This document shows, one piece after another, positions 10,408 to 40,139 of a DNA stretch of 64,000 bases. How positions within the stretch are numbered: position 1 is the first letter of the stretch; the number at the start of each line of letters is the position of its first letter. A program made the position numbers and the translations under genes. The notes under the pieces were generated by a model. That model searched no databases and was not told the origin of the DNA. It saw only the letters and a list, made by a program, of their open reading frames with translations. The stretch covers positions 56,825 to 120,824 of the forward strand of contig CAWAQY010000004.1 of assembly GCA_963784375.1 (NCBI GenBank). Direction: 5' to 3'. Origin of the DNA: an uncultured Chloroflexia bacterium. GTDB lineage: Bacteria > Chloroflexota > Dehalococcoidia > GIF9 > UBA5629.

Positions 10408-11403
10408 TTATAGAGCAGCGAATGAACAATTACTACACGATTCTATTGCTTTATAATTCTTGTTTACTATCAATCGTCTTATTCTGTTGAATTTATCTGA
10501 ATTCCATATTTCCCTCAAAGAAGATTCTTTTGCATTGCCAACAACTGTACTTCTATTCCAGTCGTTGCAGCAAATAATCACATCTCCATTGAAAAGGACG
10601 TTCATCTGGTAGAAAGGCATTTGACACCCTGCCCTGCGTTGAAGAGGTAATACTAAAGATCTACGAAGCCTGGAAAAATATCCTTTCGCATAGTAACCCT
10701 GATTAGACCTGAGGCTATCGTAATTGGGGAGGGTCCCTGCTCTGTTGGTTAGTTCCAGAACCCTGGTGGCGACCCCCATTTTATTCCAAAATCGCACTGC
10801 CTGGTATACCTCGTTCTGATTTTGCTCAGTGAATATAAAGGACAGTATTACTTTTTTTCTCATTTCTTTGTTTGATAAAAGGAAGCTTATGTTTCGCATA
10901 ACCTTCTCATAGTCCAGCCCGCAGTTGATGCGCTCGAACATTTCTTTGGAATATGCATTGAGGCTGACAATCAAACAATCAAGATTTGAGAGTAATATAT
11001 CAGTCAAAGTGAATCGATCCAGTAATTCTCCGTTAGTAACCAGTGTGGCTTCCTTGCCGGGGCTTTTTGATTTAAAGTATTTGATGAACTCAAAAGTCCT
11101 TTTATCGAGGAGTGGCTCATTGTGCAGTTCATACACAATTCCACACAGGAGCTGTTCCGGTATTGCTTCATCAACAATTTTACTGTGAAGATCCCGGGTC
11201 ATTGTCCCATGGACCAGGTTTTTGCTTATGCTATGATAAGGGCAAATTGAACACTGGCCATTGCATCCGGTTAGTGTTTGAATCTGTAATCTTAAAGGAA
11301 AATCCAGGCATTGGCCAGTTCTTTGAAATTTGAAATAAGTCCGGGCCAGGTAAAAATACAAAGGCAAATGCCAATATGCAAATGGATCTTTCTTGATTCT
11401 CAT
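10408..11403 (-). CDS. radical SAM / SPASM-domain protein
   Basis: A CNGQCSIC (CxxxCxxC) motif follows the N-terminal region. A C-terminal Cys-rich SPASM-like segment is present (GDVIICCNDW...CSNCSF). Confidence 0.75.
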   Translation of the reverse strand: MRIKKDPFAYWHLPLYFYLARTYFKFQRTGQCLDFPLRLQIQTLTGCNGQCSICPYHSISKNLVHGTMTRDLHSKIVDEAIPEQLLCGIVYELHNEPLLDKRTFEFIKYFKSKSPGKEATLVTNGELLDRFTLTDILLSNLDCLIVSLNAYSKEMFERINCGLDYEKVMRNISFLLSNKEMRKKVILSFIFTEQNQNEVYQAVRFWNKMGVATRVLELTNRAGTLPNYDSLRSNQGYYAKGYFSRLRRSLVLPLQRRAGCQMPFYQMNVLFNGDVIICCNDWNRSTVVGNAKESSLREIWNSDKFNRIRRLIVNKNYKAIESCSNCSFAAL

Positions 11404-17743: not shown

Positions 17744-18850
17744 ATGGACTTCATTTCAATAGCCCGGCAAGCTCTGGTAACTGAAAAGTTTGCTGCCGCC
17801 ATCTACTCATACCTGGCGGAAAAATATAAAAATACAGCAACCGGCAAGGCTTTCAGCGAAGTATCCGAAATGGAGCGAAGACATATTTCTTTCTGGTCGG
17901 ATTTTTTGCAAAAAAGAGGCATTGATACCTCGTCAATCGGATATAGTTCTATAAATTTTATTCTCAATAAGCTTCTATTGAGAATTATCGGCAAGTCGCT
18001 CACCTTGCGCATCATGGAAAATGGGGAAAATCAAGCCGTAGACCTTTATAGTTCAATACTTGAAGAGCATGGACTCAGCGATGAAGAAAGGAAAAAATTG
18101 ACCGGTGTCATTGCCGATGAACTTGTCCATGAAGACATATTAATAGACGAACAAACGAACTTGGGGAGTTTGACTGCGTATATCAAGGATGCTGTCCTTG
18201 GCGTCAGTGATGGCCTCGTGGAAATACTCTCGGTGACAACGGGATTAGCCGGTGCCACCGGATCGCCTTTGGCAGTAGCTATAAGCGGCCTGGTGGTAGC
18301 AGTTGCCGGCGGTGTATCGATGGGAATCAGCACTTTTGCCAGCACCCGTTCTCAAAGACAGGTCCATGAAGGAACTTTAAAAAGACTGGTCTCCGCTTCA
18401 AAATTTGTGGGAAACGTTTTTAAACAAAGGGTGCTGGATTATCTTGTTAAAATGGGTTATAGCAATAAATTATCTAAAGAAATGGCGGAAGAGACAGCGC
18501 AGAATACCCGCCTTCTTTCCAGTACCGTTGCTGAGCAAGAATACGGTCTCAAAGAAGAGAATCTAGGCGACCCAACAAAGGCCGCACTTTATGGTGGATT
18601 TTCTAACTTAATAGCTGGGCTTATACCTCTGGCTCCTTATTTTTTCATACCGGATATCACCAGAGCAGTAATAGTTTCGCTTTTCCTGGCCATTATGTCT
18701 CTGGCAATCACAGGATTTTTTGTATCCGTCATTGCCTACGTGCCGCCGGGGAAGAAGGTAGTAGAGATGATTGTAACGGGAGTTGTGTCTGCAGCCATAA
18801 CCTATGGCATCGGCAGAATAGCCTCAGTCTTTCTGGGAGCGAATGTTTGA
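17744..18850 (+). CDS. ferritin-like/rubrerythrin domain fused to VIT1/CCC1-family metal (Fe/Mn) transporter
   Basis: The N-terminus is ferritin-like (FAAAIYSYLAE...EMERRHISFW). The C-terminus is a VIT1 membrane domain (AVLGVSDGLVEILSVTTGLAGA...). Confidence 0.8.
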   Translation: MDFISIARQALVTEKFAAAIYSYLAEKYKNTATGKAFSEVSEMERRHISFWSDFLQKRGIDTSSIGYSSINFILNKLLLRIIGKSLTLRIMENGENQAVDLYSSILEEHGLSDEERKKLTGVIADELVHEDILIDEQTNLGSLTAYIKDAVLGVSDGLVEILSVTTGLAGATGSPLAVAISGLVVAVAGGVSMGISTFASTRSQRQVHEGTLKRLVSASKFVGNVFKQRVLDYLVKMGYSNKLSKEMAEETAQNTRLLSSTVAEQEYGLKEENLGDPTKAALYGGFSNLIAGLIPLAPYFFIPDITRAVIVSLFLAIMSLAITGFFVSVIAYVPPGKKVVEMIVTGVVSAAITYGIGRIASVFLGANV

Positions 18851-21655: not shown

Positions 21656-22948
21656 ATGTCAGAAATTGTAATTGTCAGTGGAGTCAGGACGGCTATAGGT
21701 AGTTTTGGTGGTTCTTTGAAAGACGTTCCGGTAGTAAAGCTGGGAGCACTGGTTATCAAGGAAGCTTTAAAAAGAGCCGGATTGAGACCGAAAACCGGTA
21801 GTAAGTTATTAGGCTATGCACCGCAACCGTTAAAGGATGCAGGAATAGTAGACCTGGAGAAAAAATATCAAGATTGGGACAGCTCGCTCAAAGAGGTGCA
21901 GGTGGACGAAGTAATCATGGGAAACGTTCTTTCGGCAGGCCAGGGGCAGAATCCCGGCAGGCAGGCAACAATCCAGGCAGGATTGCCTAAAGAAACCAAC
22001 AGTTTTACAGTGAATAAACTCTGCGCATCCGGTTTGAAAGCAATAGCCCTTGGCGCTCAAGCCATAATGACCGGCGATGCCGAGATTATCGTGGCGGGCG
22101 GCATGGAAAATATGAGCGCTGTTCCTTATGCAATGCCCAGGGCAAGATGGGGGTACAGGATGGACCTGAATGGTGTAGGCGATGTCCTTGACCTGATGGT
22201 CTGGGATGGACTTTACGAAATATTTTACGGTTATCATATGGGTATGACCGCTGAGAATGTAGCGGCGAAATATGGTATTACCAGGCTAGACCAGGATGAA
22301 ATAGGGCTGCTCAGCCATCAGACGGGCCAGGGCTGCGATTACACAGGGTATTTTCAAGCAGGAAATAGTGCCTGTAGTCATACCGCAAAAGAAAGGCGAT
22401 CCCATCGTTTTCGATACCGACGAGCGGCCCATGGACACATCGCTGGAAAAGATGGCGAAATTGCCCACCATATTCAAAAAAGACGGCACGGTCACCGCAG
22501 GCAATGCTTCCGGTGTAAACGATGCCGCGGCTGCAGTAGTGCTTATGAGCAAAGAAAAAGCACGTGAGCTGAAACTGGAACCTATGGCAACCATCAAATC
22601 GTTTGCGTCGGGTGCAATTGATCCTGCTTACATGGGCGTAGGCCCTATTCCGGCTGTAAAGAAAGCTTTGGAAAAAGCCGGGTTAAGCGTTAAGAGATAT
22701 GGATGTCATCGAGCTTAACGAAGCTTTTGCCTCCCAGGCAGTAGCCTGTATGAGAGAACTGGGCATGAGCAAGGACAATACTAATATGCTGCGGCAGCGG
22801 CATTTCGCTGGGACATCCCATAGGCGCTACCGGTGCCAGGCTCATGGTTACTCTTCTGCATGAGATGAAGCGGAACAATCACAAGAGAGGCCTGGTAACC
22901 ATGTGCATCGGCGGCGGCCAGGGTATGGCCATGATCGTGGAAAGATAA
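21656..22948 (+). CDS. acetyl-CoA C-acetyltransferase (thiolase II); at least 3 frameshifts
   Basis: The active-site Cys region is present ([13 protein letters not shown]). The C-terminal motif [12 protein letters not shown] sits in a third frame at the gene end. Confidence 0.8.
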
Positions 22949-22958
22949 GGGAGCATTT

Positions 22959-23576
22959 TTGACCCAGCTAATTATTATCAGGCACGGGCAAACGGAGTGG
23001 AACCGGGTGGAAAGGTTTCGGGGCCGGGCGAATATTGACCTTGACGAGGTCGGCAAAAAACAGGCCGAGGCTAACTGCCCGGCGAATTACGGAATGGCCT
23101 GTTTCAATGCTCTACTATAGCCCGTTGAAACGTACCGAGACTGCTGCAGGTATTATTGCCGGACGGCTTAATCTTAAATCACAGCCTTTGCCGGGCATCA
23201 TGGACTTTGACTATGGTGAATGGCAGGGGCTTACTCCGGAAGAAGCAAAAGCAAAAAACGGCTTCGCTCTATACGCAGTGGTTTGAGAGCCCTCATCTGG
23301 CAAAATTCCCCGGAGGCGAAAGCCTTGGATGACCTCCGCCAGCGGGCAGGAAAAGCGGTCGACGAGGTGATACAACGAAATCCAGAGGGAACCGTTGCCG
23401 TCTTAACGCACAAGACAGTAATTCAGGTTTTATTACTGCATTTATTAAAGTTGGATAACTCCCGTTTCTGGCAGATGTCGCAGGATGTATCCGCCATCAA
23501 TATGTTCGAGGTTAAAGATGGACTCCCCTATGCCCGCATAATCAATGATACCTGCCATTTGAAAGATATAAGGTAA
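22959..23576 (+). CDS. histidine phosphatase family protein (phosphoglycerate-mutase/alpha-ribazole phosphatase-like); frameshifted
   Basis: The RHG motif is present (LIIIRHGQTEWN). Later segments (LYYSPLKRTETAA..., ...AVLTHKTVIQVLL) lie in other frames. Confidence 0.7.
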
Positions 23577-23670
23577 AGATCATTGATATGCCGGTGCTAC
23601 AATGTTAAAGTATTCCAGGTAAATCATAGTGTCATCAGGCGCATAATTTTCTGAGCGGCAGGAGGTTGAT

Positions 23671-24701
23671 TTGAAGAGAAAAGTGGGCATTATCAATGTT
23701 ACCGGCTATGCCGGCTCCGAACTGGCACGTTTGCTTTATAATCATCCGGAGGTAGAACTGACCTCGGTTACCGGCAGGAGTGCTGCCGGTCAGAAGCTTG
23801 CCGATGTTTTTCCTCATCTGGCTGATATCGATTTAACCGATAACTTCTGAACTGGAAGAAGTGGATATTGCTTTTTCTGCCATGCCGCATAAAGCCAGCG
23901 CTGAGGTAATAGTGCCTCTGATTAAAAAGGGAGTCAAGGTCATCGACATCAGCGCTGACTTCAGGCTTAAAGATGCGTCAGAATATCCTGCCTGGTATGA
24001 ATTTGCTCATCCCGCTCCCGATCTCCTGCGAGAAGCAGTATACGGATTGCCCGAGTTACATCGTTCCGCAATTGCCAAAGCCAGACTGGTAGCAAATCCC
24101 GGGTGCTATCCCACTTCGGCTTTGCTGGCATTAGCACCATTGATGAAAGAAGGATCTTATCAGCCGGATATTATCGTTGACAGCAAGTCGGTGTTTCCGG
24201 CTCGGGCAGGACTTTGAGTATGACCACGCACTTTTGCGAGGCAGCGGATAATGTCAGCGCTTATTCGTTGAAAGGACATCGCCATCTGCCGGAAATAACC
24301 CAGGAATTAAAGGTTCTGAACCCAGGACTATCTCCGTCAGTTCTTTTCGTACCGCATTTGATACCCATGACCAGGGGTATCTTGAGCACCTGTTATGTCA
24401 AAATCAAAGCGTGATAAGCTGGCTAAAGTAAAAGCTGATTTACTATCCATTTACCGGGAATTCTATAAAAAAGAACCTTTCGTAAGGGTAGTTGATCAGC
24501 CTCCGGGAACCAAGCAGACCCTGGGCAGCAACTTCTGCCTTATTCACCCTGCTTTTGATCACAGAACAGGCACTGCTGTGATAATCAGTTGTCATTGATA
24601 ACCTGGTAAAGGGTGCTGCTGGACAAGCCATTCAAAATATGAATATAATGGTTGGCTTTTCCGAGAAAGCAGGGCTGGAAGCACTTCCCGTTTATCCCTA
24701 G
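23671..24701 (+). CDS. argC: N-acetyl-gamma-glutamyl-phosphate reductase ArgC; multiply frameshifted
   Basis: Supporting motifs are [28 protein letters not shown] (catalytic Cys) and a C-terminal [18 protein letters not shown]. They are spread over 4 frames. Confidence 0.8.
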
Positions 24702-24707
24702 TAAGAA

Positions 24708-24783
24708 GCCCCCATCGTCTAGAGGCCTAGGACACGAGCCTTTCAAGCTCGCGACACGGATTCGAATTCCGTTGGGGGCACCA
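24708..24783 (+). tRNA. tRNA-Glu (anticodon UUC)
   Basis: It folds as a cloverleaf with acceptor gccccca/tgggggc, anticodon loop cuUUCaa, T-arm acgga-ttcgaat-tccgt and a CCA end. Confidence 0.85.
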
Positions 24784-24804
24784 ATTAGTTCCGGGGTAAA
24801 TATC

Positions 24805-25580
24805 TTACTTCAGGTGAAGTGATCTCAAGATTCTACCACCAATAAATCTAAGATGTGAACGTTTAACGCTGCACTTATTACACAATTCATAGCCAGGATG
24901 ATAATTTTGTTTTATCTCCTGGTAGCTGTCAGTGAACAGGTTGCCTAATTTATGTTGTAAACCAAAATCCCTGCAGCAGAGATATACATCTCCATTCGGT
25001 AGCATGGTAAAATCGGGATTGTCCCAATTGTAGCAATGCCCGCCCCTTTTCTCTTTAAGTAGAAATCCCCCTGGTGACGTTTTCTCTATTATCCGTTCGG
25101 AAATTGTCATTCATTATTTTCAAAGAAATGTTTGGTACAGTTTGTAATGCAGTGAAGATATTGTTTTTATTTTCTTCAGTTATTGGTATTTTCATAGTTA
25201 TGCCCATCCGGTAAATGAAGGCAAAATATTAAAAACGGGTAGGTCATTAATTCTGTCAAATCCTCGTGACTGATTCCACAAAGCGTAGTGAATAGCATTA
25301 AAGGATGTTGCTTCTCATGAGCAAGGCGGATGAATTTTATTGAATCTTTGTTCGCAAAAGGCTCGCAAAAACCTGAGAAGGCGATTGGTAGTTTAGGGGG
25401 CAAATGCTCTAATACAACAGTAAAATCATCTACAGATAACGTTTTGTTCTCATTTCCATAGTTATTTACTGTTATTTCTTGCGGGCAATATCGCAAACAA
25501 CCCACAGGACACCCGATTTTTGTGGTAACTTCCAGATATTCCAGTCTTTCCAAATCAACTACCAAGGATGCCATCTCCAC
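24805..25580 (-). pseudogene. radical SAM/SPASM-domain protein, split into two ORFs (paralog of 10408-11403)
   Basis: The upstream piece has a Cys-rich segment CPVGCLRYC. The downstream piece has a SPASM-like LPNGDVYLCCRDFG...CNKCS. Both pieces align with the 10408-11403 protein. Confidence 0.5.
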
Positions 25581-25629
25581 AGGATTAATTCACGACGATT
25601 TTCGCTCAAATTTTATCACTCTCGGTCAA

Positions 25630-26574
25630 TCAGTATTTAACACGGGATAGATCGATAAGTTTAAAATAGATATTGTAAAACGTACAAAATATCGACTGTC
25701 CCAGAAATGACAATAACGCGGCTCCGGCATATCCGATCCTGCAGTCCGTTTTAACAGCTTTTACTATATAACCTCTCCCCTTCAAAATCTCTCCTCCATA
25801 GACATAAAGCCAGCCGATGAAATACCAATAATTTGCTAAAATGCTTTTATGTTTTTCTATATCCTGCTTATGTTTATTCAAACAATACTCCAGGGCATGA
25901 GCAATATCAATTTTAGCATGAGAAAGCCCGGCCACATTGAATTTCGAAGGACTATCCGGGTGATAGTGCATTATTAACATGGGCTCCTTAATGTAGTTGA
26001 ACCGGTAATATTTTGCCAGCCTGATGAATAAGTCCGTATCTTCTGAATGAGAAAGACATTCATCAAAGATTCCTGCATTATCGAAACATTCCCGGCGTAT
26101 TAAAGTGGCTCCCATTCTCAGGCCGTTTCCCAATTTATAGATATTCTCACTTTGACTGGAAATTTCCCGGCACGATACATACATTCTCTGCTTTCCTTTT
26201 ACATCCCACCTGGGCCCATAGATCATCCCCACCTCTTTTGAACAATTTTCTAAAGCACCTACATATTTCTCAAGTTTTTCAGGTAGATATTCATCGTCGT
26301 CATCAAGGAATGCTACATATTTCCCCCTGGCAGCCATAATTCCCATATTTCGTGAGGCAGACACCCCTTTATTTTGGTCAGCGCGGATATATCTAATACG
26401 TTCGTCTGCAAATAGCTTGATAGTATCCTCCGTATTATCAATTGAAGCATCGTCCACAATAATTAATTCAAAGTCCTGGTATGTTTGATTCAGAACGCTT
26501 CGGATTGCCCTCGAAATAATCTGTGCTCTGTTATGCGTTGGAATAATAACACTGACAGTTGGATTTTTAGCCAT
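25630..26574 (-). CDS. family-2 glycosyltransferase
   Basis: GT2 signatures are present (VSVIIPTHNRAQI...LIIVDDASIDNT, DDDDEY). Confidence 0.8.
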   Translation of the reverse strand: MAKNPTVSVIIPTHNRAQIISRAIRSVLNQTYQDFELIIVDDASIDNTEDTIKLFADERIRYIRADQNKGVSASRNMGIMAARGKYVAFLDDDDEYLPEKLEKYVGALENCSKEVGMIYGPRWDVKGKQRMYVSCREISSQSENIYKLGNGLRMGATLIRRECFDNAGIFDECLSHSEDTDLFIRLAKYYRFNYIKEPMLIMHYHPDSPSKFNVAGLSHAKIDIAHALEYCLNKHKQDIEKHKSILANYWYFIGWLYVYGGEILKGRGYIVKAVKTDCRIGYAGAALLSFLGQSIFCTFYNIYFKLIDLSRVKY

Positions 26575-26710
26575 TTTTACACTTCAAATTTAATGGAGCA
26601 GTCTGTGGCAGTCGTTGTCGAAGGTATTTTATCATTAAATATCGATGGAGTTAATTCGGATAATCCTCGAATGCTTATAAATAGGTGAATGACCAGACTA
26701 AAATAGGGGA

Positions 26711-26782
26711 GCCCCCATTGTAGGCCTGGGGCACGTGCCTTTCAAGCTCGTGATACAGATTCGAATTCCGTTGGGGTCACCA
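26711..26782 (+). pseudogene. degenerate second copy of tRNA-Glu(UUC) (pseudo-tRNA / att-type direct repeat)
   Basis: It is about 80% identical to the 24708-24783 tRNA. It has a shortened D-arm and mismatches in the acceptor (C2:U71), anticodon and T stems. Confidence 0.6.
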
Positions 26783-26902
26783 CAATTATTCAAATCTAAC
26801 CCACTCGTAGTATAAACTCTTACTTTTTGTCCATTTTTGCGATTTTAATTTGTGCTTACGACTTTCCCATATTCGAAGTGAGGAACGTATAATGATTACA
26901 CA

Positions 26903-27109
26903 ATGCCAAAATGTGGCGGAAAAGTAGTCATTCAGGGATTGGGGTGTAAACCCTTAAATATCCCAATAGAAAATATTTATGACGCTTTAAAGGCATATCG
27001 TGGTGTGGAGGCAACAGCGGAAAAACTGGGATGCAGAGGTTATATCTTCAATAAGTTAAAATCGAATGGGATGAAATTGAAAGATGTGATTAGGTTCAAG
27101 TTAGCTTAA
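26903..27109 (+). CDS. small putative helix-turn-helix protein
   Basis: The segment ATAEKLGCRGYIFNKLKSNG resembles an HTH. It lies just after the pseudo-tRNA in the low-GC island. Confidence 0.35.
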   Translation: MPKCGGKVVIQGLGCKPLNIPIENIYDALKAYRGVEATAEKLGCRGYIFNKLKSNGMKLKDVIRFKLA

Positions 27110-27252
27110 TGAGTTGGCATCGAATGAGATAAGAATCTGATAAAAATTCTACTCACACGATGGAAGTGATACAATTGTCCAAAGAGATGAAATAAATATG
27201 AAAATGTGGTAGCTATTATCAAGGCTCTCATTGTTAAATTAGGAGGAAGGGC

Positions 27253-28080
27253 GTGGAACATACGATTAAGAATAACCTCAAGAAAAGCAATATCCCAAAA
27301 AAGTTAATCGGCAAGTTGTGGAAGCTATTTGGCTGGATAGCATTATTTTTATTAATTCTAGTTCCAATTGCTTTTTATCTCGAACATTTATTTCCTGATA
27401 ATTATTGGATTTATGCCGTTATGGGATTATCGGCTTTAATTACTTTAGTTATAATCTTCTATGGAATCGTAGCTAGGCAATACAGGGCTTTTTATTTCAC
27501 ATTATTTCCTCTAGCTGCATTGGTGTTCTTTACTCTTTACAATTATCAATATTTAGCTAATATATTAAATCCTTGGGCAGCAATAATGTTTGCCTTGGTA
27601 GCTATTCTTACAATCCTAGAAAATAACCTTCTCACTAGGGAAAGGAATAATCTATTCTCCAAACAGCGGGCTGAAGATAGAGATTTAGATTTTAAGAGGC
27701 GTTCATTGGATGAAATAGTAAAATGGACTAAGGAAATTTGGAAACTAATATTGATATCTAGAAAGCTTACCCAAACGAGTCTGATGGAATTGAGAGAAGT
27801 GTTACAAGTTCAAGAGATAGAAGGTCATTGGATGAAAGAAACCGCAGAAATTTTCGAAGCTGATTATACGAATATGGTTCTTGCAGTTTCCCACGTTCGG
27901 ACAAATCTTCGAACATATTTAGAAAAAATAATAGACAAGATGGCCGAATGCGAGGGTCTCAGCAATCCTGAAAATGCAATTCTGCAACTCTTGAATTCTC
28001 GTGAGCACTACACACTTATAGGTTCTTTAAGCGTTGTTCTTAATACAGCTTTCGCTGTAAAAAAAGTTTATAAGCTATAA
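27253..28080 (+). CDS. hypothetical membrane protein (N-terminal 4 TM + C-terminal coiled-coil-like region)
   Basis: An RBS (aggagg) precedes the start. The gene has AT-rich codon usage and no recognised domain. Confidence 0.45.
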   Translation: MEHTIKNNLKKSNIPKKLIGKLWKLFGWIALFLLILVPIAFYLEHLFPDNYWIYAVMGLSALITLVIIFYGIVARQYRAFYFTLFPLAALVFFTLYNYQYLANILNPWAAIMFALVAILTILENNLLTRERNNLFSKQRAEDRDLDFKRRSLDEIVKWTKEIWKLILISRKLTQTSLMELREVLQVQEIEGHWMKETAEIFEADYTNMVLAVSHVRTNLRTYLEKIIDKMAECEGLSNPENAILQLLNSREHYTLIGSLSVVLNTAFAVKKVYKL

Positions 28081-28357
28081 TCAAGGTAAATTTGAAATTG
28101 CCAACTTACTACTATTTTCCCTTTTCAAAGCTTCATGGGAACGAAGCATATTATCATGAATATTCAATTGGGGTTCCGCCCCCCGCTTAGGTTGAACTTA
28201 CTCGATACTTCTTGAACCTGGCTTTATAACTGGTATCAATATGTATCTAGTCTATGGCAGGGCGTATCAACAATTGTGTTTCTACGAAAACCTAAATTCC
28301 AAATACATTGATTTGATCTTGGTTCCGTCCCCAGGTTTTAACCCCGTTTACAAACTT

Positions 28358-29068
28358 TTAAAGAAACTTTGTGTTTAATCGGAAAACATCTGAGTCGCAA
28401 AGTTGCCGGCGATTCCTACGCCCATCTTGCGGAAAACAGGATTCATAATATTTTGCCGGTGGCCGGGAGAATCGAGCCATCCCTGAACCAGGGATGCAGC
28501 AGTGTTGATAACCCATGGCAACATTTTCCCCTACACAATGTGCTCCACATGTCTGGATACTCGTGGTCGCCCTGGCATCAAAACCTTCGTGGCTCATTAC
28601 ATTAGTTTTTACCATATCCAGGCTGTGCTGAAGAGCCAGTGAATCCAGAACGCCATCCCTGACCACCACCCCTAACCCGTTTGCTGCCCTCGCTTTATTT
28701 ATCAAAACAAGGACTTGTCCCTCCATGGATGGGTCCTGCGTCTGATTGAGAGTATTGTTGCTATTATTCTGGCTTTGTTGCCCTTCAATGAATAAATAAG
28801 CCGGTACATTTAAAGACTTGTTGATTGAGGGTTGGGTTGTCTGGGCTGATGGTGTTGACGGTTGTTGACTTTGCACGGGAGCTGTAGGGGGCTGTGCCGG
28901 GGCAGGCGTCTGCTGCTTAATGATGGTGGGTGGTTCAACCTTATTTTGGGTTTGGGGAACCTGAGGAGATTGAACGCTGGTAACTTTAACAGGTAAAGGC
29001 TCATCACAGGCCAGAGTGCCTGCGATTATTATTACAAATATAATAAATAGCTTAATAATCCTGTTCAT
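28358..29068 (-). CDS. secreted CAP/SCP (PR-1-like) domain protein with Pro/Gln-rich linker
   Basis: A signal/TM segment MNRIIKLFIIFVIIIAG is followed by a PQ-rich linker. The CAP-like core is NKARAANGL...HS..M...SHEGF...GENVAMGY. Confidence 0.6.
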   Translation of the reverse strand: MNRIIKLFIIFVIIIAGTLACDEPLPVKVTSVQSPQVPQTQNKVEPPTIIKQQTPAPAQPPTAPVQSQQPSTPSAQTTQPSINKSLNVPAYLFIEGQQSQNNSNNTLNQTQDPSMEGQVLVLINKARAANGLGVVVRDGVLDSLALQHSLDMVKTNVMSHEGFDARATTSIQTCGAHCVGENVAMGYQHCCIPGSGMARFSRPPAKYYESCFPQDGRRNRRQLCDSDVFRLNTKFL

Positions 29069-29441
29069 GATTGTCTCATTGTTTTAAAGAGATGATTTCC
29101 AGTGTCATTAGATTATATACACGTAAATAGGTACAAAGTAAAATAATCGACAACAATATCTCCTACCCGGAGGTTTTAAATTTGGGAAAATAGCTCTGAA
29201 AATGAGAAGTCAACCGATTTAAATCGGTTGACTTCTCCTAAGGGGGTTGATATGAAGAAAGCTCCAGTGCACCGCCGAAGCAAATATTCATTACATCAGT
29301 TACATTCTAATCTCAAAAAGTAAAAATACCGGTAAACAAATGATAAATTACCATCAATATTTGGTAAAAATAAAGTAAATTCCGCTACAATGTACGCTGT
29401 TTGCCTTCTTGTAAATTGGAACTGGATACTGCCTTTATAAA

Positions 29442-30838
29442 ATGGATAATTCATTAGATAAGCGTTTTGTACTGGTTATTGCTGCTCTGCCGAATTTCCT
29501 GTTCCCTTTCATGTCTACGGCAATGAACGTGGCATTGCCATCGATAAGCACGGAACTATCAATGAATGCTTTCTTATTGGGGTGGGTGGTGACCGGATAT
29601 CAGCTTGCCTCAGTAATTCTGGTATTGCCTATCGGCAGGCTGCAAGATATTTACAGCAGGAAAAATATTTTACTTGCCGGGGTGTTCCTTTCCACGGCTA
29701 CCTGCCTTATGCTGATGTTTGTTAATTCAGCTACCGAGCTTATTCTATTCCGGGTACTCCAGGGAATCGGAGGAATAATGAGCTTTACCACTTCCATGAC
29801 GATCCTGATTTCGGTCTTTCCGGCAGGGCAAAGAGGCAAAGCCCTGGGTTTTCTTTCCGCCGCAGCTTATGCCGGTCAATCTGCAGGTCCATTTGCAGGG
29901 GGTTTGCTTACCCACTATTTCGGCTGGAGGAGTATTTTCCTGGTAGGAGTACTGATAAGTTTGTTAACAGTCGCTCTTATTTTCTGGAAATTAAAAGGAG
30001 ATTGGGTTGAATCCAAAGGCGAAAAGTTTGATATACTCGGGACCAGTCATACTTGGTTTCGGCCTATTTGCCACGATATACGGACTGTCATCTCTTCCGG
30101 ACACTTCAGGATTATTCCTTGTTGGAATTGGTGTTGCAGGCCTGGTGGCATTTGTTTTCTGTGAATTAAAGGTAAAAAGCCCCATCCTGAATATAGACCT
30201 GTTCAGGAAAAACAGGGTTTTCGCTTTCTCCAGCATGGCAGCACTGATTAATTTCGGAGCAACCTGGCCGGTGGCTTTACTGTTGAGCCTCTATCTGCAA
30301 TACATCAAAGGTTTCGATCCGCAGATAGCAGGTTTCGTACTGATAACCCAGCCTGTAATCCAGGTACTTTGTGCTCCTCTCGCTGGAAGAATATCCGACA
30401 GGATTCAACCACGAATCGTTGCCTCAGCAGCTATGGCTCTCACCACAATCGGTCTTATTATGTTCTCTTTTCTGGATGCAGGGACAAGCATAGTCTATCT
30501 TCATCAGCACTCTGGTGCTGGTAGGGATAGGATTCGCCTTTTTTGGCGCTCCGAACAATAATGCAATCCTGAACTCAGTAGACAAGAAGTTCTACGGAAT
30601 TTCCTCGGCTATCATCTCAATGATGCGGCAGCTAGGGGTAATTATCGGCATGGGCACGATTATGATGTTGTTCTCAATCTACATCGGCAAAGCGCAGATA
30701 ACTCCCGAATATTACCCGCTTTTTTTGATTATAATGAAACTTGGATTTTCAATTTTTGCAGTGCTTTGTTTCGTAGGGATTTTTGCTTCTCTTTCCAGGG
30801 GAAAAACAAAGAATCAACCGGCCGCAATTGAAATTTAA
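29442..30838 (+). CDS. MFS transporter (DHA-type); 2 frameshifts
   Basis: Three overlapping ORF pieces are present. The motif PIGRLQDIYSRKN is found. It is a paralog of 19310-20687. Confidence 0.75.
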
Positions 30839-30888
30839 TTTGTCAATAGTAACTTCAGTTGCTTTTGAGATCGCCATCTCTAAGCAGG

Positions 30889-31176
30889 TTAAACGTTTAA
30901 TCTTTCCATTAAAGACAGGCTGAAGATGAGAGTAAACACGGTTACGATAAGTATTGCAATCATTCCATCAAGTTCTATTTTTCCATTGATCATCAAATAG
31001 CAGGCGAATACAATAGCTGCGGTACCGAAAGCGATCAGAGCACCTGCAGCAATTTTCCGCCACCATTCACCGATTCGCTCGAGCTTCCTGGCTGCAACGG
31101 CCGTTACCTGAGGTTCCTTAATACGTTCCATTTCAATATCTCCTAGATAATCAGAGTTCATTGTGCCACATGGCAA
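30889..31176 (-). CDS. small membrane protein
   Basis: It is a 95-aa protein with 2 TM segments. Confidence 0.35.
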   Translation of the reverse strand: MPCGTMNSDYLGDIEMERIKEPQVTAVAARKLERIGEWWRKIAAGALIAFGTAAIVFACYLMINGKIELDGMIAILIVTVFTLIFSLSLMERLNV

Positions 31177-31246
31177 TAAGGTACTGTTTTGTGGGGAACT
31201 TAAGTACCGGTGCTCAAGTGTCGCCGCGAGGTAAAGCAGGAAGAAA

Positions 31247-31684
31247 TCAATTCATCTGGAATGGGATCGCTATTTCTTCAACATCGTTTACCGAAAGAAT
31301 TACTTTGTAAGTCCCGCGAGGCCAGCCGTTGGCAAAACGTCTCATAAACATCGCCATGCGGCCTTCTGTTTTCACAAGTTCAGTCCAATTATCGATAACA
31401 TAATTATTTACTTCCGTTACCTCTCCCTTAACGTATATCCACTGGGCCGATACGCTCACGCCGAGGGAACCTTTGAGAGGCAGGAAAGAACAATATATCT
31501 GGGAGGGGTCAGTAGTAAATTTGACGGTGGGGTTAACCGGGTTGAGCTGTTTATCAAGTTCGGCGGATAACGCTATCTCTTTAAGGGAATTTGAATTAAA
31601 AGTGACAGCGCCGGTACAACTGATAATCGATAAAACAAACACCAGTAGAACCGTAAGGACACCCAATAGTTTGTGAGATATCAT
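31247..31684 (-). CDS. secreted hypothetical protein
   Basis: An N-terminal signal/TM segment is present (LLGVLTVLLVFVLSIISC). Confidence 0.4.
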   Translation of the reverse strand: MISHKLLGVLTVLLVFVLSIISCTGAVTFNSNSLKEIALSAELDKQLNPVNPTVKFTTDPSQIYCSFLPLKGSLGVSVSAQWIYVKGEVTEVNNYVIDNWTELVKTEGRMAMFMRRFANGWPRGTYKVILSVNDVEEIAIPFQMN

Positions 31685-31702
31685 ATGTTCATATTCCTCA
31701 AC

Positions 31703-32704
31703 TTATCTGGTTAATTCTTCCTTTGTTTTTTCAATTTGATTTATAAACACCGGATCGGTCGCCAATTTCATAGCACTTAACAGATCAGCTTTTGCCAGGG
31801 TATTTTTGCCCTGTGCCTGATAAAGCAAAGCTCTGCGGTAGTACGTTAACCCCGAATCGGGATCAAGCTTAATGGCAACATTTAAGTCATTGGCCGCCGC
31901 TTCGTTGTTTTTCAAATTATAATATATCCAACCTCGGTTGGCATATGCTTCAGCGAGGGAAGCATCAAGAGCGATGGCCCGGTTAAGGTCATTAAGGGCT
32001 TTGTCGAGTTGATCGTCAGCCAGGTAGGCAGCTCCTCTCATGCTGTACGCAATGGCTGAATCGGGAGCTCTGCTAATCGCTTTGTTCAGGTCTGCTATTT
32101 CCATGGTTGTCCACCCTTTGGATGCATATATTCTGGCTCTTTCGATATATGCTTCGGACATCTGCGGTTCAACATCAATAGTCTTACTCACAAACGCAAG
32201 CTGCCTGGATGAGCCGCCCCTGCTGCCTGTAAGCTACACCGAGGCGATAATATGCCAGCCCCATGTCGGGTTCTATGTCTTTTGCCAGCATCTGGTCAAT
32301 ATTAAGAGCGTTGTCCATGTCCGCCATTGCCATCTGCATTGAATTCAGCAAACTATAGGTAAGAGCACGGGCAAAATATGCCTCAGCGAAACGTGGAGAA
32401 AGCTCAATTGCCCTGCTCAGGTCTGCAGCGGCAAGTAGAATAAAGATGGTTGGCAGCGATAAGCAATGCCTCTCTTGTAGTAGGCATCAACGAACTGGGT
32501 ATTCTTTTCGATAGCTTTAGAGTATTGGGAAATGGCTTCCTGCCATTGCTGCCCGGCTGAATAGGCATCTCCTCGTTCAACAAACGTTTCCGCTTTTTCA
32601 GAGCAGGAAGCAAAAGCTAAAGTAGACGCGAAAAGTATAAGGAGGACTGAATTAACAAGCTTAGCGTTCAACGGTTTAAAAATCTCGTTGGGGAGAGAGC
32701 GCAC
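31703..32704 (-). CDS. TPR-repeat protein; frameshifted
   Basis: Multiple TPR units are present (AYANRGWIYYNLKNNEAAANDLNVAIKLDP...). The N-terminal piece with a signal sequence lies in another frame. Confidence 0.6.
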
Positions 32705-32754
32705 CTGATCTTACCCCTTACCATTTTTGAGTTATTATACTCAATTTCTAATGG

Positions 32755-33559
32755 TTAAGGGGGATTTGGACAAAGCGCGCCGGTACTATCCAGTCTGTTT
32801 CTGCCGATTTCAAGTAACTGCTTTTCGGCGGTTGAAGACAATCCAAGATCGGGTATAAGTCTTTCCATGTCTTCAAATTTGCCGAACCCACCCAGATAAC
32901 CGTTTACTCGCGTCGCTGCCGTAGAATTTGTCAGATCGTTATCATCCGGGTATTTCATCTGGAATTCTCTGAGAAGCCAGGGATACATTTTCAGATAGTA
33001 TTTCTGGTGATAATCCTCAGCTAGATAGAATGTTAGTATATGGTTTGAGCTCGGTATATACCTTCTGTCCCAGCCTGGTTTCTTCCTGTTGCATCGATTC
33101 CAGAGCTAACCTTTTTTGTTCTTCGTTAGCATAAAAGATTATTGACTTGTACTGAGTCGAATCGGACTCATAAACCGGGAAGTGGCTTTGCCAGAACACG
33201 GTGAGCAATCCCTGGTAGGAGATAACAGCGGGGTCGTAATCAACCTGGACAGTTTCGCTATAGTCACCGATTTTATAGTATGTAGGATTGTTGGAACTAC
33301 CGCCTGCATAGCCGACCCTGGTACGTATTACACCGTTAAGACTCCCGAACTGGGAGTCCGATCCCCAGAATCAGCCTAATGAAAAAGTCGCAGTTTCAAT
33401 TTTAGCTGGAGTTAAAGTATCAACCAATGGAATTTCAGACGTAGCCAATGTCATGCCGGTCTCCTGTTCAGCTTTGTTCGCACAAGCCCCTAATGCAGAA
33501 GGCACTAACAAACTGGCAAAAACCAAAATCAGTATCACTATATTTTTCATCATATTCAA
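32755..33559 (-). CDS. secreted/lipoprotein hypothetical; frameshifted into 3 pieces
   Basis: A signal peptide with lipobox-like LGAC is present (MMKNIVILILVFASLLVPSALGACANK). Confidence 0.4.
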
Positions 33560-33749
33560 TCTCTCTTTTCAACATAAACCTTCTAACGTGATTATATTTT
33601 ATCGTTAAAAAGGCTTCGGGTATGTGACTTCTGTCTCAGAAATATAAATAATACATCAGTGATGGAATGAAAGCGCTGGGGCAAGTAAATTCTGGGGAAA
33701 GATGCTTGGATTTTAACTATATCTAGGTATGACCCATCGTCGAAGTGTA

Positions 33750-34076
33750 CTAAAGGTTGCTCCACCTGGTTTTTAGCAGTTCCTGTTCGACAAGATAGAG
33801 CCTGCCGTCCTCGGTCGTTTCCACTACTTTGATATGCATCAACAACTGCAGAGCCTTGGGCTTATAATCTCTTAGTTTCATCATCCTGTCAATAAAACTC
33901 GGCGGTTTCAAGCCAAGTTCGTCCACAAACTTAGCATTACCGGGACTTAGTGCCCCATGCTTGCGGAAAATCTTGATTACTTTAGGGCAAGCCATAGCTA
34001 CCATGAGCTGGGGTAGAAAGATCATAGCTGCCAGCAAGACTATGACCATTCCAATTATAATTGCCCAATCATACAT
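33750..34076 (-). CDS. hypothetical membrane-anchored protein
   Basis: It is a 108-aa protein with a single N-terminal TM segment. Confidence 0.4.
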   Translation of the reverse strand: MYDWAIIIGMVIVLLAAMIFLPQLMVAMACPKVIKIFRKHGALSPGNAKFVDELGLKPPSFIDRMMKLRDYKPKALQLLMHIKVVETTEDGRLYLVEQELLKTRWSNL

Positions 34077-34154
34077 GAGACTTATCTCCTCTCGAATTTG
34101 CCCTTCATTTTACCCGATTTACAGAAAGCATGGAAATACAATTAACTGGACATG

Positions 34155-34742
34155 CTATGTCAATTTGAGAATCTGCTGCTTATGTTCTTCCAATGCTTTT
34201 GTGTACTGCGCATCGAGCTCATTGCTGGCTCTACGCCATTCATCCTGGAATTGCTGCTGAATCTGAACTTCCAGATTAGCGGCACCGCCCGGGCGTTGCT
34301 GCAATGCCTTGGCGGTTTCCTGGATTTTCTCCTCGAAATTTTTCTTAAACGTTGCAAATGTTTGCTGGCGTGCCTGATCGTAATACGACAGCAGGTTGTT
34401 AATAAGCTCAAAGATCGTATCAAGCTGTTTCTTATTTTCTTTGAGTAATCTTATTCCCGCCATCGCCCTGCTGGTGACTTTCTTGTCAGTTTCATTATGA
34501 GGAAGGCTTATGTTCCTCATGAATATTTCGTGAGCCCCCTGGACAATGTATTTCCTGCCTTCATTGCCTTTATATTTGTTTAATTCCGCATCCAGATCAT
34601 ACTTATCATCCTGTGTATATTTAGCAGCCATAGAACTTCCCAGCGGAATAAACTCAAGCTGCTTTAGTTCATCCTGAGTCGGTTTCCCAAGCAGCTCGGC
34701 TTTTTCCATTGCTTTTTCCCAGGCGCTTTTCATTTCTCCCAT
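34155..34742 (-). CDS. hypothetical protein (charged, helical)
   Basis: It is 195 aa long with no recognised domain, and lies upstream of 33750-34076 on the same strand. Confidence 0.4.
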   Translation of the reverse strand: MGEMKSAWEKAMEKAELLGKPTQDELKQLEFIPLGSSMAAKYTQDDKYDLDAELNKYKGNEGRKYIVQGAHEIFMRNISLPHNETDKKVTSRAMAGIRLLKENKKQLDTIFELINNLLSYYDQARQQTFATFKKNFEEKIQETAKALQQRPGGAANLEVQIQQQFQDEWRRASNELDAQYTKALEEHKQQILKLT

Positions 34743-35616: not shown

Positions 35617-35961
35617 AGGTTGCCCATGAAAGAGCATGTCGTTGCCGAGATTTCGGTGGTTCCTCTGGGTACTGCAGGGAACCAGTCTCAGCCATTTTGT
35701 TGCAGGATGCACTGAGATACTCGATGGTATTAAAGATGTCTCATACCAGTTGACGCCAATGGGTACTATCATAGAAGGTTCCCTGGATAACAGTACTCGA
35801 AGTGGCCGGGCTATTACACGAAGCACCATTTAACAAAGGAGCTTTCCGCGTGCTCACCACTCTAAAAATTGATGATCGTAGAGATAAGAAAATAACCATG
35901 GATAGTAAAATCGAATCCGTGTTAAAGTGGCGGCCGAATACCCGGACAGGTAAGAAGAATT
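35617..35961 (+). CDS. MTH1187/YkoF-family (UPF0045) protein; frameshifted
   Basis: The sequence VAEISVVPLGT...SLS..VA...L...YQLTPMGTIIEG matches the MTH1187 family. Confidence 0.55.
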
Positions 35962-35964
35962 AAA

Positions 35965-36893
35965 ATGCCGCGACATCAGCGTTCAATTAGCCCCGTTGAA
36001 TAAAAAGGGGTTGTTGTTAGCCAACCCGATAATGACAGCCGCGGGCACTTCTGGCTATGGCACCGAATGGGATGAGCTGTTAGATGTTCAACAGCTTGGA
36101 GCTGTCGTCTGCAAAGGCACAACCCTCAAGCCGAGAGACGGCAATCCTCAACCGCGTTTGATAGAGACATCTTCAGGTCTGCTTAATTCGATCGGCTTGC
36201 AGAATATCGGGGTTGAAGCTGTAATAAAAGAAAAGGCTCCTGTCTGGAAGCAGTGGCGGGTTCCGGTTATTGTCAATATCGCCGGGGAAAGCATCGATGA
36301 ATACTGCAAGAGTGGCTGCAAGACTCAATGGTGTCCCCGGTATCAGCGGCATCGAAGTTAATATAAGCTGTCCCAATGTCAGTTGCGGCGGAATGGAATT
36401 CGGGATTGACCCTGAGGCCTCTGCCAGGGTTACCAGCGCCGTCAAATCTGCAACGGATTTGCCGGTTATGGTAAAACTCAGCCCTAATGTAACCGATATT
36501 ACTGAGATAGCTCTGGCAGTAGTCGAAGCAGGAGCAGATGCTATAACTCTGATTAATACGTTGCGCGGGATGATGATTAATACCGACAGGGGGAAACCTT
36601 CCCTGGGCAACATAATCGGCGGGCTTTCAGGACCTGCAATCAAACCTGTTGCCCTCTACATGGTGTACAGGGTTGCCCGTGCAGTCAAGGTGCCGGTGAT
36701 CGGATGCGGCGGAATTGCCTGCGCTGAAGATGCACTGCAATTCATTATGGCCGGTGCCAGTGCAATACAAATTGGAACGGCGGGCATGGCGGATCCGGCG
36801 CTATTCTTGAAAGTGCTCAAGGGAATTGTGCAGTATCTTGAAACCAGGAAAATAAAAAAGCTTAAAGATATCGTGGGAATCGCCAGCGAATAA
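35965..36893 (+). CDS. pyrD: dihydroorotate dehydrogenase catalytic subunit (class 1B-type PyrD); frameshifted, start uncertain
   Basis: Supporting motifs are LANPIMTAAGTSGYG, IEVNISCPNV, GLSGPAIKPVAL and IGCGGI. Confidence 0.8.
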
Positions 36894-36906
36894 TATCCTG
36901 CTCTCC

Positions 36907-39798: not shown

Positions 39799-39874
39799 GG
39801 GGATATAGCTCAATTGGGAGAGCGCTGCGTTCGCATCGCAGAGGTCGGGGGTTCGAATCCCCCTATCTCCACCA
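39799..39874 (+). tRNA. tRNA-Ala (anticodon CGC)
   Basis: It folds as a cloverleaf with the G3:U70 Ala identity pair. The anticodon loop is uuCGCau, the T-arm is ggggg-ttcgaat-ccccc, and it ends in CCA. Confidence 0.85.
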
Positions 39875-39892: not shown

Positions 39893-40139
39893 CGTAATGT
39901 TTTACGCATATATTCTTCAAAGTGAATTGACCAGACAATACTATATTGGCTCAACTCAGGATGTAACTACGCGAATAAAAGAACACAACGCTGGTAGGAC
40001 CCCTTCAACAAAAGCACACCGCCCGTGGAAAGTGGTTTATACCGAACCTTTTAACTCGCTGAGTGAAGCAAGACAAAGAGAACGTCAGATTAAATCCTGG
40101 AAGAATCCCAAATATATGATCAAAACCCTCGGAATATAG
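39893..40139 (+). CDS. small GIY-YIG nuclease-superfamily protein (UPF0213/YhbQ-like)
   Basis: The GIY-YIG core is MFYAYILQS...YYIGSTQDVTTRIKEHNAG...KSWK. Its last codons and stop lie inside tRNA-derived sequence. The track ORF 39744-40139 is an artefact that runs through the tRNA. Confidence 0.7.

Follow-up and report, generated by a model that had tools for sequence, protein, structure and literature searches.

This study concerns a small genomic islet that lies immediately behind a tRNA-Glu gene in an uncultured Chloroflexia bacterium (GTDB: Dehalococcoidia; GIF9; UBA5629). The whole stretch of DNA analyzed, here termed the window, comprises 64,000 nt and corresponds to positions 56,825-120,824 of contig CAWAQY010000004.1 (GCA_963784375.1); all coordinates of the islet refer to it. 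We hold with moderate confidence that the islet is a fixed, immobile insertion scar at a tRNA-Glu hotspot, i.e. that a gene pair for a family 2 glycosyltransferase (GT2) and a short radical-SAM/SPASM-like protein was brought in by an event that also duplicated the tRNA gene, and that the redundant distal copy of this gene has since decayed. An earlier note on the same DNA had described a probably decayed, tRNA-targeted integrative element reaching to about 29.1 kb, and its individual claims are taken up where the pertinent results are given.

A functional tRNA-Glu gene and its degenerate copy

The gene for tRNA-Glu(UUC), with its CCA end encoded, occupies positions 24708-24783 on the plus strand and starts 8 nt past the end of argC, as it does in relatives. 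It is called by ARAGORN, scores 61.6 bits with the Rfam tRNA model and folds into a cloverleaf (minimum free energy -30.7 kcal/mol, z -3.55), in full agreement with the earlier assignment as a functional gene. A second copy resides on the same strand 1999 nt downstream of the first (26711-26782). This full-length direct repeat runs from tRNA position 1 through CCA; relative to the true tRNA, nine bases are exchanged and 4 nt of the D arm are missing. The gap-free 61-nt part of the two copies is 89% identical, the longest identical block comprises 20 nt, and the similarity ends at both ends of the tRNA, that is at position 1 and at CCA. When a 25-nt probe from the tRNA 3' end was used, only two sites were matched, one in each copy, with none expected by chance.

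The distal copy is not a functional tRNA gene. It is not called by ARAGORN, its Rfam score of 28.2 bits falls below the gathering score of 29 bits, and its structure of minimum free energy is not a cloverleaf (-18.2 kcal/mol, z +0.82). According to the Rfam model, each of the acceptor, anticodon and T stems contains an uncompensated non-standard pair and the D arm is truncated, which bears out the D-arm shortening and stem mismatches already reported in the earlier note. None of the stem changes is compensated, just as neutral decay predicts. The sequence at 26711-26782 is therefore termed pseudo-tRNA here and should not be counted as a gene in annotations.

Information on the origin of the pseudo-tRNA came from an alignment of 12 tRNA-Glu sequences. 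The tRNA-Glu of the window possesses a compensated G28-C42 pair that is unique among the aligned sequences, the relatives having C-G or U-G at this position. Furthermore, it contains a C50-G64 pair in the T stem that occurs in none of the aligned relatives and, among other relatives, only in the locus designated L087. The pseudo-tRNA carries the same states on both sides of both pairs. It therefore derives from the tRNA-Glu of its own lineage, or of a very close relative, and not from a distant donor. The outcome that the earlier note had named as pointing to a simple tRNA duplication, namely relatives with two intact tRNA-Glu genes, was not encountered: in about 25 relatives with a tRNA-Glu gene, no further copy of it was present near argC.

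A variable interval downstream of tRNA-Glu

The left anchor for comparison with other genomes is argC (23671-24700, plus strand), which encodes N-acetyl-gamma-glutamyl-phosphate reductase and is followed by tRNA-Glu within about 10 nt across the class. The right anchor is a conserved backbone gene encoding a DUF6657-like protein (34155-34742, minus strand), which is found with 50-67% tblastx identity and conserved downstream synteny in nine relatives (L003-L007, L083, L087, L088 and L091). The best ArgC matches in genome and metagenome contig collections are only 67-74% identical to the protein encoded in the window. The distance from tRNA-Glu to the backbone gene was measured in ten loci, the window included, and amounts to 0.32 kb in L006, 0.40 kb in L005, 0.61 kb in L004, 0.84 kb in L087, 2.3 kb in L003, 3.4 kb in L007, 3.9 kb in L088, 6.8 kb in L083, 7.9 kb in L091 and 9.37 kb in the window. 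The contents of the interval are unrelated between these genomes. Since the backbone gene and the region beyond it are syntenic in relatives while the contents in between are unrelated, the variable interval in the window is defined as 24784-34154. In four of the relatives (L004, L005, L006 and L087) the site is nearly empty, with 0.3-0.8 kb between the anchors, these relatives being distant (ArgC identity of 74% at most).

A pair of more closely related loci allows the left border of the exchanged DNA to be located precisely. Upstream of the site, L007 and L091 share 89% identity at the DNA level; the two sequences part precisely at the final base of the tRNA, and homology sets in again after 0.6 kb in L007 (11112-11686) and after 5.1 kb in L091 (11112-16171). 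The extra DNA of L091, missing from L007, encodes an AAA_15/AAA_21 ATPase, a DUF4276 protein and a CAP12/Pycsar-type TIR protein and thus resembles a defense cassette. Two relatives carry scars similar to attachment (att) sites of integrative elements. In L083, the 3' part of the tRNA from the T stem to CCA is repeated in degenerate form over 27 nt (17908-17934, 25 of 27 positions matching) at a distance of 4 nt from the backbone gene, and in L087 such a repeat (2577-2606, 23 of 27 matches) is found at the same distance from that gene; in the latter case the anticodon arm may be included in a stretch of weaker similarity. These repeats bound inserts of 6.8 kb and 0.8 kb, respectively, that are devoid of an integrase. 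Neither of the two short scars is detected by the Rfam tRNA model.

Judged by gene order, then, the site immediately 3' of tRNA-Glu behaves as a hotspot of gene turnover in Dehalococcoidales, the order to which this analysis assigns the bacterium. It can be viewed as a recurrent position of gene exchange in poorly known uncultured Chloroflexota, at which surface-glycan, defense-like and orphan genes come and go.

A separate observation relates to L082 and L083, two metagenome-assembled genomes that are 92% identical. Here, a 1.0-kb cassette with one unknown ORF (open reading frame) of 280 aa (L082, 11240-12256) is swapped for a 2.1-kb cassette with three unknown ORFs (L083, 11241-13324). The swap begins 130 nt past tRNA-Glu and homology resumes after the cassettes.

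The base composition of the window sets apart only the proximal part of the interval. From about 24.75 to 28.25 kb the GC content is 0.33-0.40, compared to a window mean of 0.45 (standard deviation 0.04). GC content at third codon positions (GC3) is 0.385 for the GT2 gene (z -1.5) and reaches 0.325 (z -2.5) for the gene at 27253-28080, the lowest value among 54 ORFs, making it the most AT-rich gene of the window. The gene for a CAP-domain protein at 28375-29068 (GC 0.47-0.49, GC3 z -0.6) and everything beyond it are normal, such that composition deviates from the remainder of the window for 24.8-28.2 kb only. Tetranucleotide deviation at 25-28 kb amounts to z values of up to 2.8, with equal peaks at 1-3 and 56-58 kb, and similar stretches of low GC (0.35-0.39) are present at 41.5-42.5 and 55.5-57.5 kb. 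The latter stretch, whose tetranucleotide deviation is as large as that of the islet, contains an ORF that by eye resembles a frameshifted TetR-type regulator. The sliding-window analysis of GC and codon usage confirms that low GC persists from about 24.75 kb past the pseudo-tRNA, as had been claimed, but the AT-rich tract ends at about 28.2 kb and not at 29.1 kb. The right boundary of about 29.1 kb assigned to the island fits neither this compositional limit nor the limit of synteny at 34.15 kb. On the left side, non-syntenic DNA begins directly after 24783.

How the islet may have arisen

The reading that we prefer postulates one or more insertions of DNA at the 3' side of tRNA-Glu, the present segment being an immobile remnant. 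The latest recognizable event would have placed the module of GT2 and SPASM-like gene beside the tRNA and would have duplicated the whole tRNA. The copy next to argC would have stayed functional while the redundant distal copy drifted to a pseudogene. The AT-rich orphan genes between 26.8 and 28.2 kb would most simply be an older or co-inserted foreign piece, and the genes of normal GC content out to 34.15 kb would have been part of this variable interval for longer, as content specific to the lineage.

A number of observations weigh against this reading. First, a Pfam scan of 24784-29450 in all six frames detected no integrase, transposase, excisionase or fragments thereof, and a Pfam search of the ORFs out to 34.1 kb revealed no integrase, transposase or fragments either. 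No integrase is encoded by those ORFs that were inspected directly behind tRNA-Glu in about 20 relatives, and DNA searches against plasmid and phage records yielded no similarity. Second, the repeat in the window comprises the whole tRNA, whereas the scars of L083 and L087 comprise only the part from the T arm to CCA. Integrases that target tRNA genes cross over in the T loop or the anticodon loop and normally duplicate only the 3' part of the tRNA. Third, the pseudo-tRNA, 12% diverged, sits in the middle of the AT-rich tract and not at its edge. There is no repeat at the synteny boundary at about 34.1 kb, and a search for a further tRNA-Glu scar at 26.8-34.3 kb returned a best score below the shuffled mean. 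Fourth, the compositional shift is real but modest and matched elsewhere in the window. Finally, the closest relatives exhibit an ArgC identity of about 74%, so that the comparison with empty sites is a distant one, and ordinary gain and loss of genes could account for much of the region from 28 to 34 kb.

PADLOC and PHROGs searches with the islet proteins likewise returned no recombinase; their matches were of a generic kind (glycosyltransferase, radical-SAM and CAP-like, the last as a sporulation protein), apart from a single marginal SLATT-like match. The statement that no integrase remains therefore holds for all four approaches (six-frame Pfam, ORFs out to 34.1 kb, PADLOC and PHROGs), and an integrase-bearing integrative element was rejected as a classification for the islet, neither a tyrosine nor a serine recombinase having been found. 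The broader proposal of a tRNA-targeted integrative element is partly supported: the hotspot, the existence of a repeat, the atypical composition and the att-like scars in relatives speak for it, the missing integrase and the extension of the repeat over a whole tRNA against it. A segment identical to the 26-nt 3' end of the tRNA-Glu occurs in four viral contigs of high GC content, each of which carries an adjacent ORF with hallmarks of a tyrosine integrase as recognized by eye. All of them stem from other phyla and none from Dehalococcoidia, suggesting that the 3' segment of tRNA-Glu serves as an attachment site for phages in those phyla.

The absence of a recombinase, a repeat that comprises the complete tRNA and is sharply delimited at position 1 and at CCA, the lineage-specific states common to both copies and the position of the pseudo-tRNA away from any compositional boundary would also be expected if the repeat had arisen by a local, non-mobile duplication through slippage or unequal recombination. 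One of the copies would then have decayed, and the intervening genes would have arrived or been rearranged independently, without an insertion having made the repeat. We regard such a purely local event as unlikely and as less likely than an insertion scar, because nothing else was duplicated along with the tRNA although a tandem duplication would copy flanking sequence too, because none of the roughly 25 relatives has two copies, and because the site has been shown to be a hotspot of insertion, att-like scars being present in L083 and L087. In addition, the intervening DNA is compositionally atypical. We thus infer insertion rather than local duplication as the source of the repeat.

If the repeat is indeed the trace of an insertion, two mechanisms appear about equally probable. 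An integrase, either lost since or acting in trans, could have used an attP site with a long tRNA-like segment. Alternatively, a circular DNA carrying the whole tRNA-Glu could have been taken up by Campbell-type homologous recombination. With a complete tRNA-Glu copy on the circle, such recombination would require no integrase. A bolder version of the second mechanism would make tRNA-Glu in Dehalococcoidales a recombinase-independent site of cassette exchange, at which modules (glycan-related in the window, defense-like in L091) enter by Campbell-type recombination and the leftover tRNA copy may be reused as promoter of the incoming operon. This generalization is speculative and rather improbable in our view; if true, it would account for the duplication of the tRNA over its full length as well as for the absence of integrases beside tRNA-Glu in the relatives examined.

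Genes between the two tRNA copies

Pfam matches substantiate that a GT2 gene and a radical-SAM/SPASM-like gene lie between the two tRNA-Glu copies. Both are transcribed from the minus strand, the GT2 gene being situated directly upstream. The intact GT2 gene (25630-26574; Pfam Glycos_transf_2, E 4e-39) encodes a protein whose best non-self homologue is 47% identical, and homologues are found in polysaccharide clusters. The second gene (24805-25580) encodes a short protein of about 255 aa with a detectable SPASM domain (Pfam E 1.5e-6). Its reading frame is split over three frames by two 1-nt indels. When stitched, the protein aligns end to end with intact homologues of 250-270 aa (best identity 59%) and keeps every invariant residue of its family. 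While the canonical motif for binding of the radical-SAM cluster is CX3CX2C, an N-terminal CX3CX3C motif is invariant in this family. The Pfam Radical_SAM domain is not detected in the protein from the window and matches some homologues weakly. In this family (P0121-P0240; L163, L165 and L167), most members lack a precomputed Pfam domain, and names exist for only a few, for the most part 'hypothetical'.

The genomic surroundings of the SPASM-like homologues point in the same direction as those of GT2. They reside in glycan clusters together with genes for AglB/STT3, GT2, methyltransferase and Wzm/Wzt proteins, and in L163 the homologue directly follows a GT2 gene just as in the window. From these associations, the GT2 and SPASM-like pair looks like a putative module for modification of cell-surface glycans, and the cargo of the islet may accordingly act on the cell surface. 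In annotation, attention is due to this conserved family of short proteins, SPASM-like with a CX3CX3C motif, and to its association with glycan clusters.

The earlier note had considered the split gene a paralogue of the intact radical-SAM/SPASM gene at 10408-11403 and had concluded that cargo might have been duplicated from elsewhere in the chromosome or acquired horizontally. Alignment of the two proteins gives 26% identity across 77 aa and 42% across 31 aa, and they have only their superfamily in common. A recent paralogue would be expected to exhibit high identity over the full length, and a recent duplication was therefore dismissed.

The split nature of the gene might also be taken as a sign of decay. 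In fact, the backbone genes are equally broken. The argC gene is distributed over five frames in the assembly as revealed by three-frame translation, the stitched protein being 67-74% identical to ArgC from Dehalococcoidales, and changes of frame occur in the window where relatives have none. In comparison with relatives, about nine within-gene frame changes are present at 21.6-24.7 kb and four to five at 34.1-39.6 kb. The 9.4-kb variable interval with about seven is not more broken than the backbone. Throughout the window, single-base frameshifts are pervasive in housekeeping genes, e.g. those for thiolase, a phosphoglycerate-mutase-like protein, ArgC and an MFS (major facilitator superfamily) transporter, with about one per 0.35-1.2 kb (examples at 21656-22948, 22953-23582, 23671-24700, 29442-30838 and 35680-36900). 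Such a distribution over conserved housekeeping genes indicates an unpolished long-read assembly rather than real pseudogenes, and the many frameshifts of this assembly should not be read as such. The simplest reading of the split SPASM-like gene is therefore an indel error of the assembly, or at most very recent damage. As a mark of decay it was rejected in view of the nine or so frame changes in the 21.6-24.7 kb backbone and of the complete set of residues shared with homologues. Decay can be demonstrated for the tRNA copy and not for the genes, and only in this restricted sense is the term 'decayed remnant' upheld.

Given an assembly with this many frameshifts in conserved genes, and related assemblies in the same collections that bear contig names in long-read style, it might be asked whether the second tRNA copy or even the whole junction originates from mis-assembly or poor polishing of error-rich long reads. 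We consider this hardly credible. The copies differ mainly by substitutions and by one 4-nt deletion, quite unlike the single-base indels elsewhere, both flanks consist of unique sequence, and the neighboring GT2 and orphan genes have unbroken reading frames.

A promoter-like site within the pseudo-tRNA

A consensus scan revealed a sigma-70-like site, TTGAAA-17-TACAAT, on the minus strand within the pseudo-tRNA (26745-26717) that matches the consensus in 10 of 12 positions and is to be treated as a lead only. It is oriented towards the GT2 operon, the start of GT2 following after about 135 nt. Its -35 element corresponds to the anticodon loop of the tRNA in reverse complement. The -10 box and the spacing of 17 nt, as read from the sequence, exist only through two of the changes of the pseudo-tRNA, its C9>T exchange and its 4-nt deletion. 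These features could mean that the antisense strand of the pseudo-tRNA has been co-opted as a putative promoter of the GT2-SPASM operon and that the copy has been kept for this role instead of being a neutral scar. Promoter-like matches are, on the other hand, common in the AT-rich region (26 found versus 15 expected), about 0.1 sites of 10/12 quality are expected by chance in the spacer, and the other seven substitutions of the pseudo-tRNA find no such explanation. Co-option is therefore a doubtful proposition, and for the pseudo-tRNA we adhere to neutral decay of a redundant copy.

Genes beyond the pseudo-tRNA

The AT-rich tract continues past the pseudo-tRNA with two genes on the plus strand for which, as stated earlier, no function is recognizable. 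The first (26903-27109) encodes 68 aa without any match in Pfam, NCBIfam, PDB (for Pfam and PDB even at E ≤ 10), PADLOC or PHROGs. Its former designation as a small HTH (helix-turn-helix) protein finds no support in Pfam, NCBIfam or PDB, and a resemblance to a Fis-type HTH noted by eye is a lead only. The second (27253-28080) encodes a membrane/helical protein of 275 aa, which is a near-orphan: a search among 5.8 billion proteins returned the protein itself only, an exhaustive HMMER search led to 14 remote matches (E ≥ 6e-10), and neither PADLOC nor PHROGs gave a match. The secreted CAP/SCP-domain protein encoded on the minus strand at 28375-29068 had been included in the AT-rich region. Its domain is real, as it is recognized by Pfam once a single frameshift is stitched (E 1.9e-12), but by its GC and GC3 values cited above the gene does not belong to the AT-rich tract.

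Between the CAP gene and the MFS transporter, a perfect palindrome of 34 bp without spacer is located at 29204-29237 (GAGAAGTCAACCGATTT/AAATCGGTTGACTTCTC). It could be an operator-like site, albeit one that has no regulator gene adjacent to it. The distal part of the variable interval (29442-34076) is of normal GC content and, according to Pfam, encodes the MFS transporter (in three pieces), two small membrane proteins, a lipoprotein, two TPR proteins, a candidate selenoprotein MsrA and another small membrane protein. The only tblastx match of this part to the intervals of relatives is that of 33753-34094 to L003. The ORF at 30889-31176 on the minus strand specifies a two-helix membrane protein of 95 aa with marginal PADLOC matches to SLATT-type proteins (E 0.0018) and ThsA (E 0.0065), which are probably driven by composition.

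The gene for the lipoprotein-type MsrA (32755-33559, minus strand) contains an in-frame TGA codon (33371-33373) where the catalytic cysteine is expected (ATFSLG-TGA-FWGSD). The protein also matches the Pfam 'Selenoprotein MsrA helical domain', and an 8-bp hairpin begins 14 nt past the TGA. The gene is affected by one frameshift near 33010-33030. MsrA is thus a candidate selenocysteine enzyme whose mRNA may form a stem resembling a selenocysteine insertion sequence (SECIS).

Outside of the variable interval, a gene for tRNA-Ala(CGC) is found on the plus strand at 39799-39874. It is followed by a small ORF (about 39900-40139) that by eye resembles a GIY-YIG nuclease of the UPF0213 type. The tRNA-Ala(CGC) gene also occurs downstream of tRNA-Glu in L004 and L007.

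Comparison with known systems

A tRNA-linked islet with a repeat scar is, as such, well-known biology. Genomic islands linked to tRNA genes reportedly originate from site-specific integration into the 3' part of the tRNA, for which a sublocation scheme is said to have been proposed by Williams in 2002. The islet studied here corresponds to these islands in that it starts immediately 3' of a tRNA gene (non-syntenic DNA from 24784), in its direct repeat on the far side and in its atypical composition. Relatives carry different cargo at the same site, and two of them (L083 and L087) exhibit the classic repeat from T arm to CCA. In contrast to such islands, no integrase or mobility gene was found in the islet, and its repeat, which has diverged by 12%, comprises the tRNA in full and does not mark the end of the AT-rich tract but is located within it.

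Within the same bacterial class, the ssrA-linked islands of Dehalococcoides offer a second point of reference. These are islands of low GC content arranged in tandem downstream of ssrA, which insert in the T-loop region and are marked by a 20-bp repeat of the 3' end of the gene (PMC3146451). The family is characterized by a DsiB/CcrB-type serine recombinase module and carries reductive dehalogenases as cargo, and some of its members are devoid of an integration module and thought to be either fixed or mobilized in cis (PMC3146451). The islet shares with them the bacterial class, the low GC content, the location behind a small RNA gene and the direct repeat. It differs by its target (tRNA-Glu), by a repeat of 72 nt instead of 20 bp, by its cargo of glycan-related and orphan genes and in that no DsiB/CcrB-type module was found. 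Membership in the ssrA island family was rejected on the grounds of the different target and the missing DsiB module.

A third category is that of the cis-mobilizable elements (CIMEs), i.e. att-flanked pieces of DNA without a recombinase of their own that are left behind by accretion. The islet resembles CIMEs in being short, flanked by att-like sequences and located beside a tRNA gene, with no recombinase found. In contrast to CIMEs, its repeats are too diverged to be assumed active, given a longest identical block of 20 nt, and it has no known partner element with an integrase. The CIME concept is also cited in the work on the ssrA islands (PMC3146451). Taking all three comparisons together, the most fitting label is that of an islet or scar without a recombinase at a tRNA hotspot.

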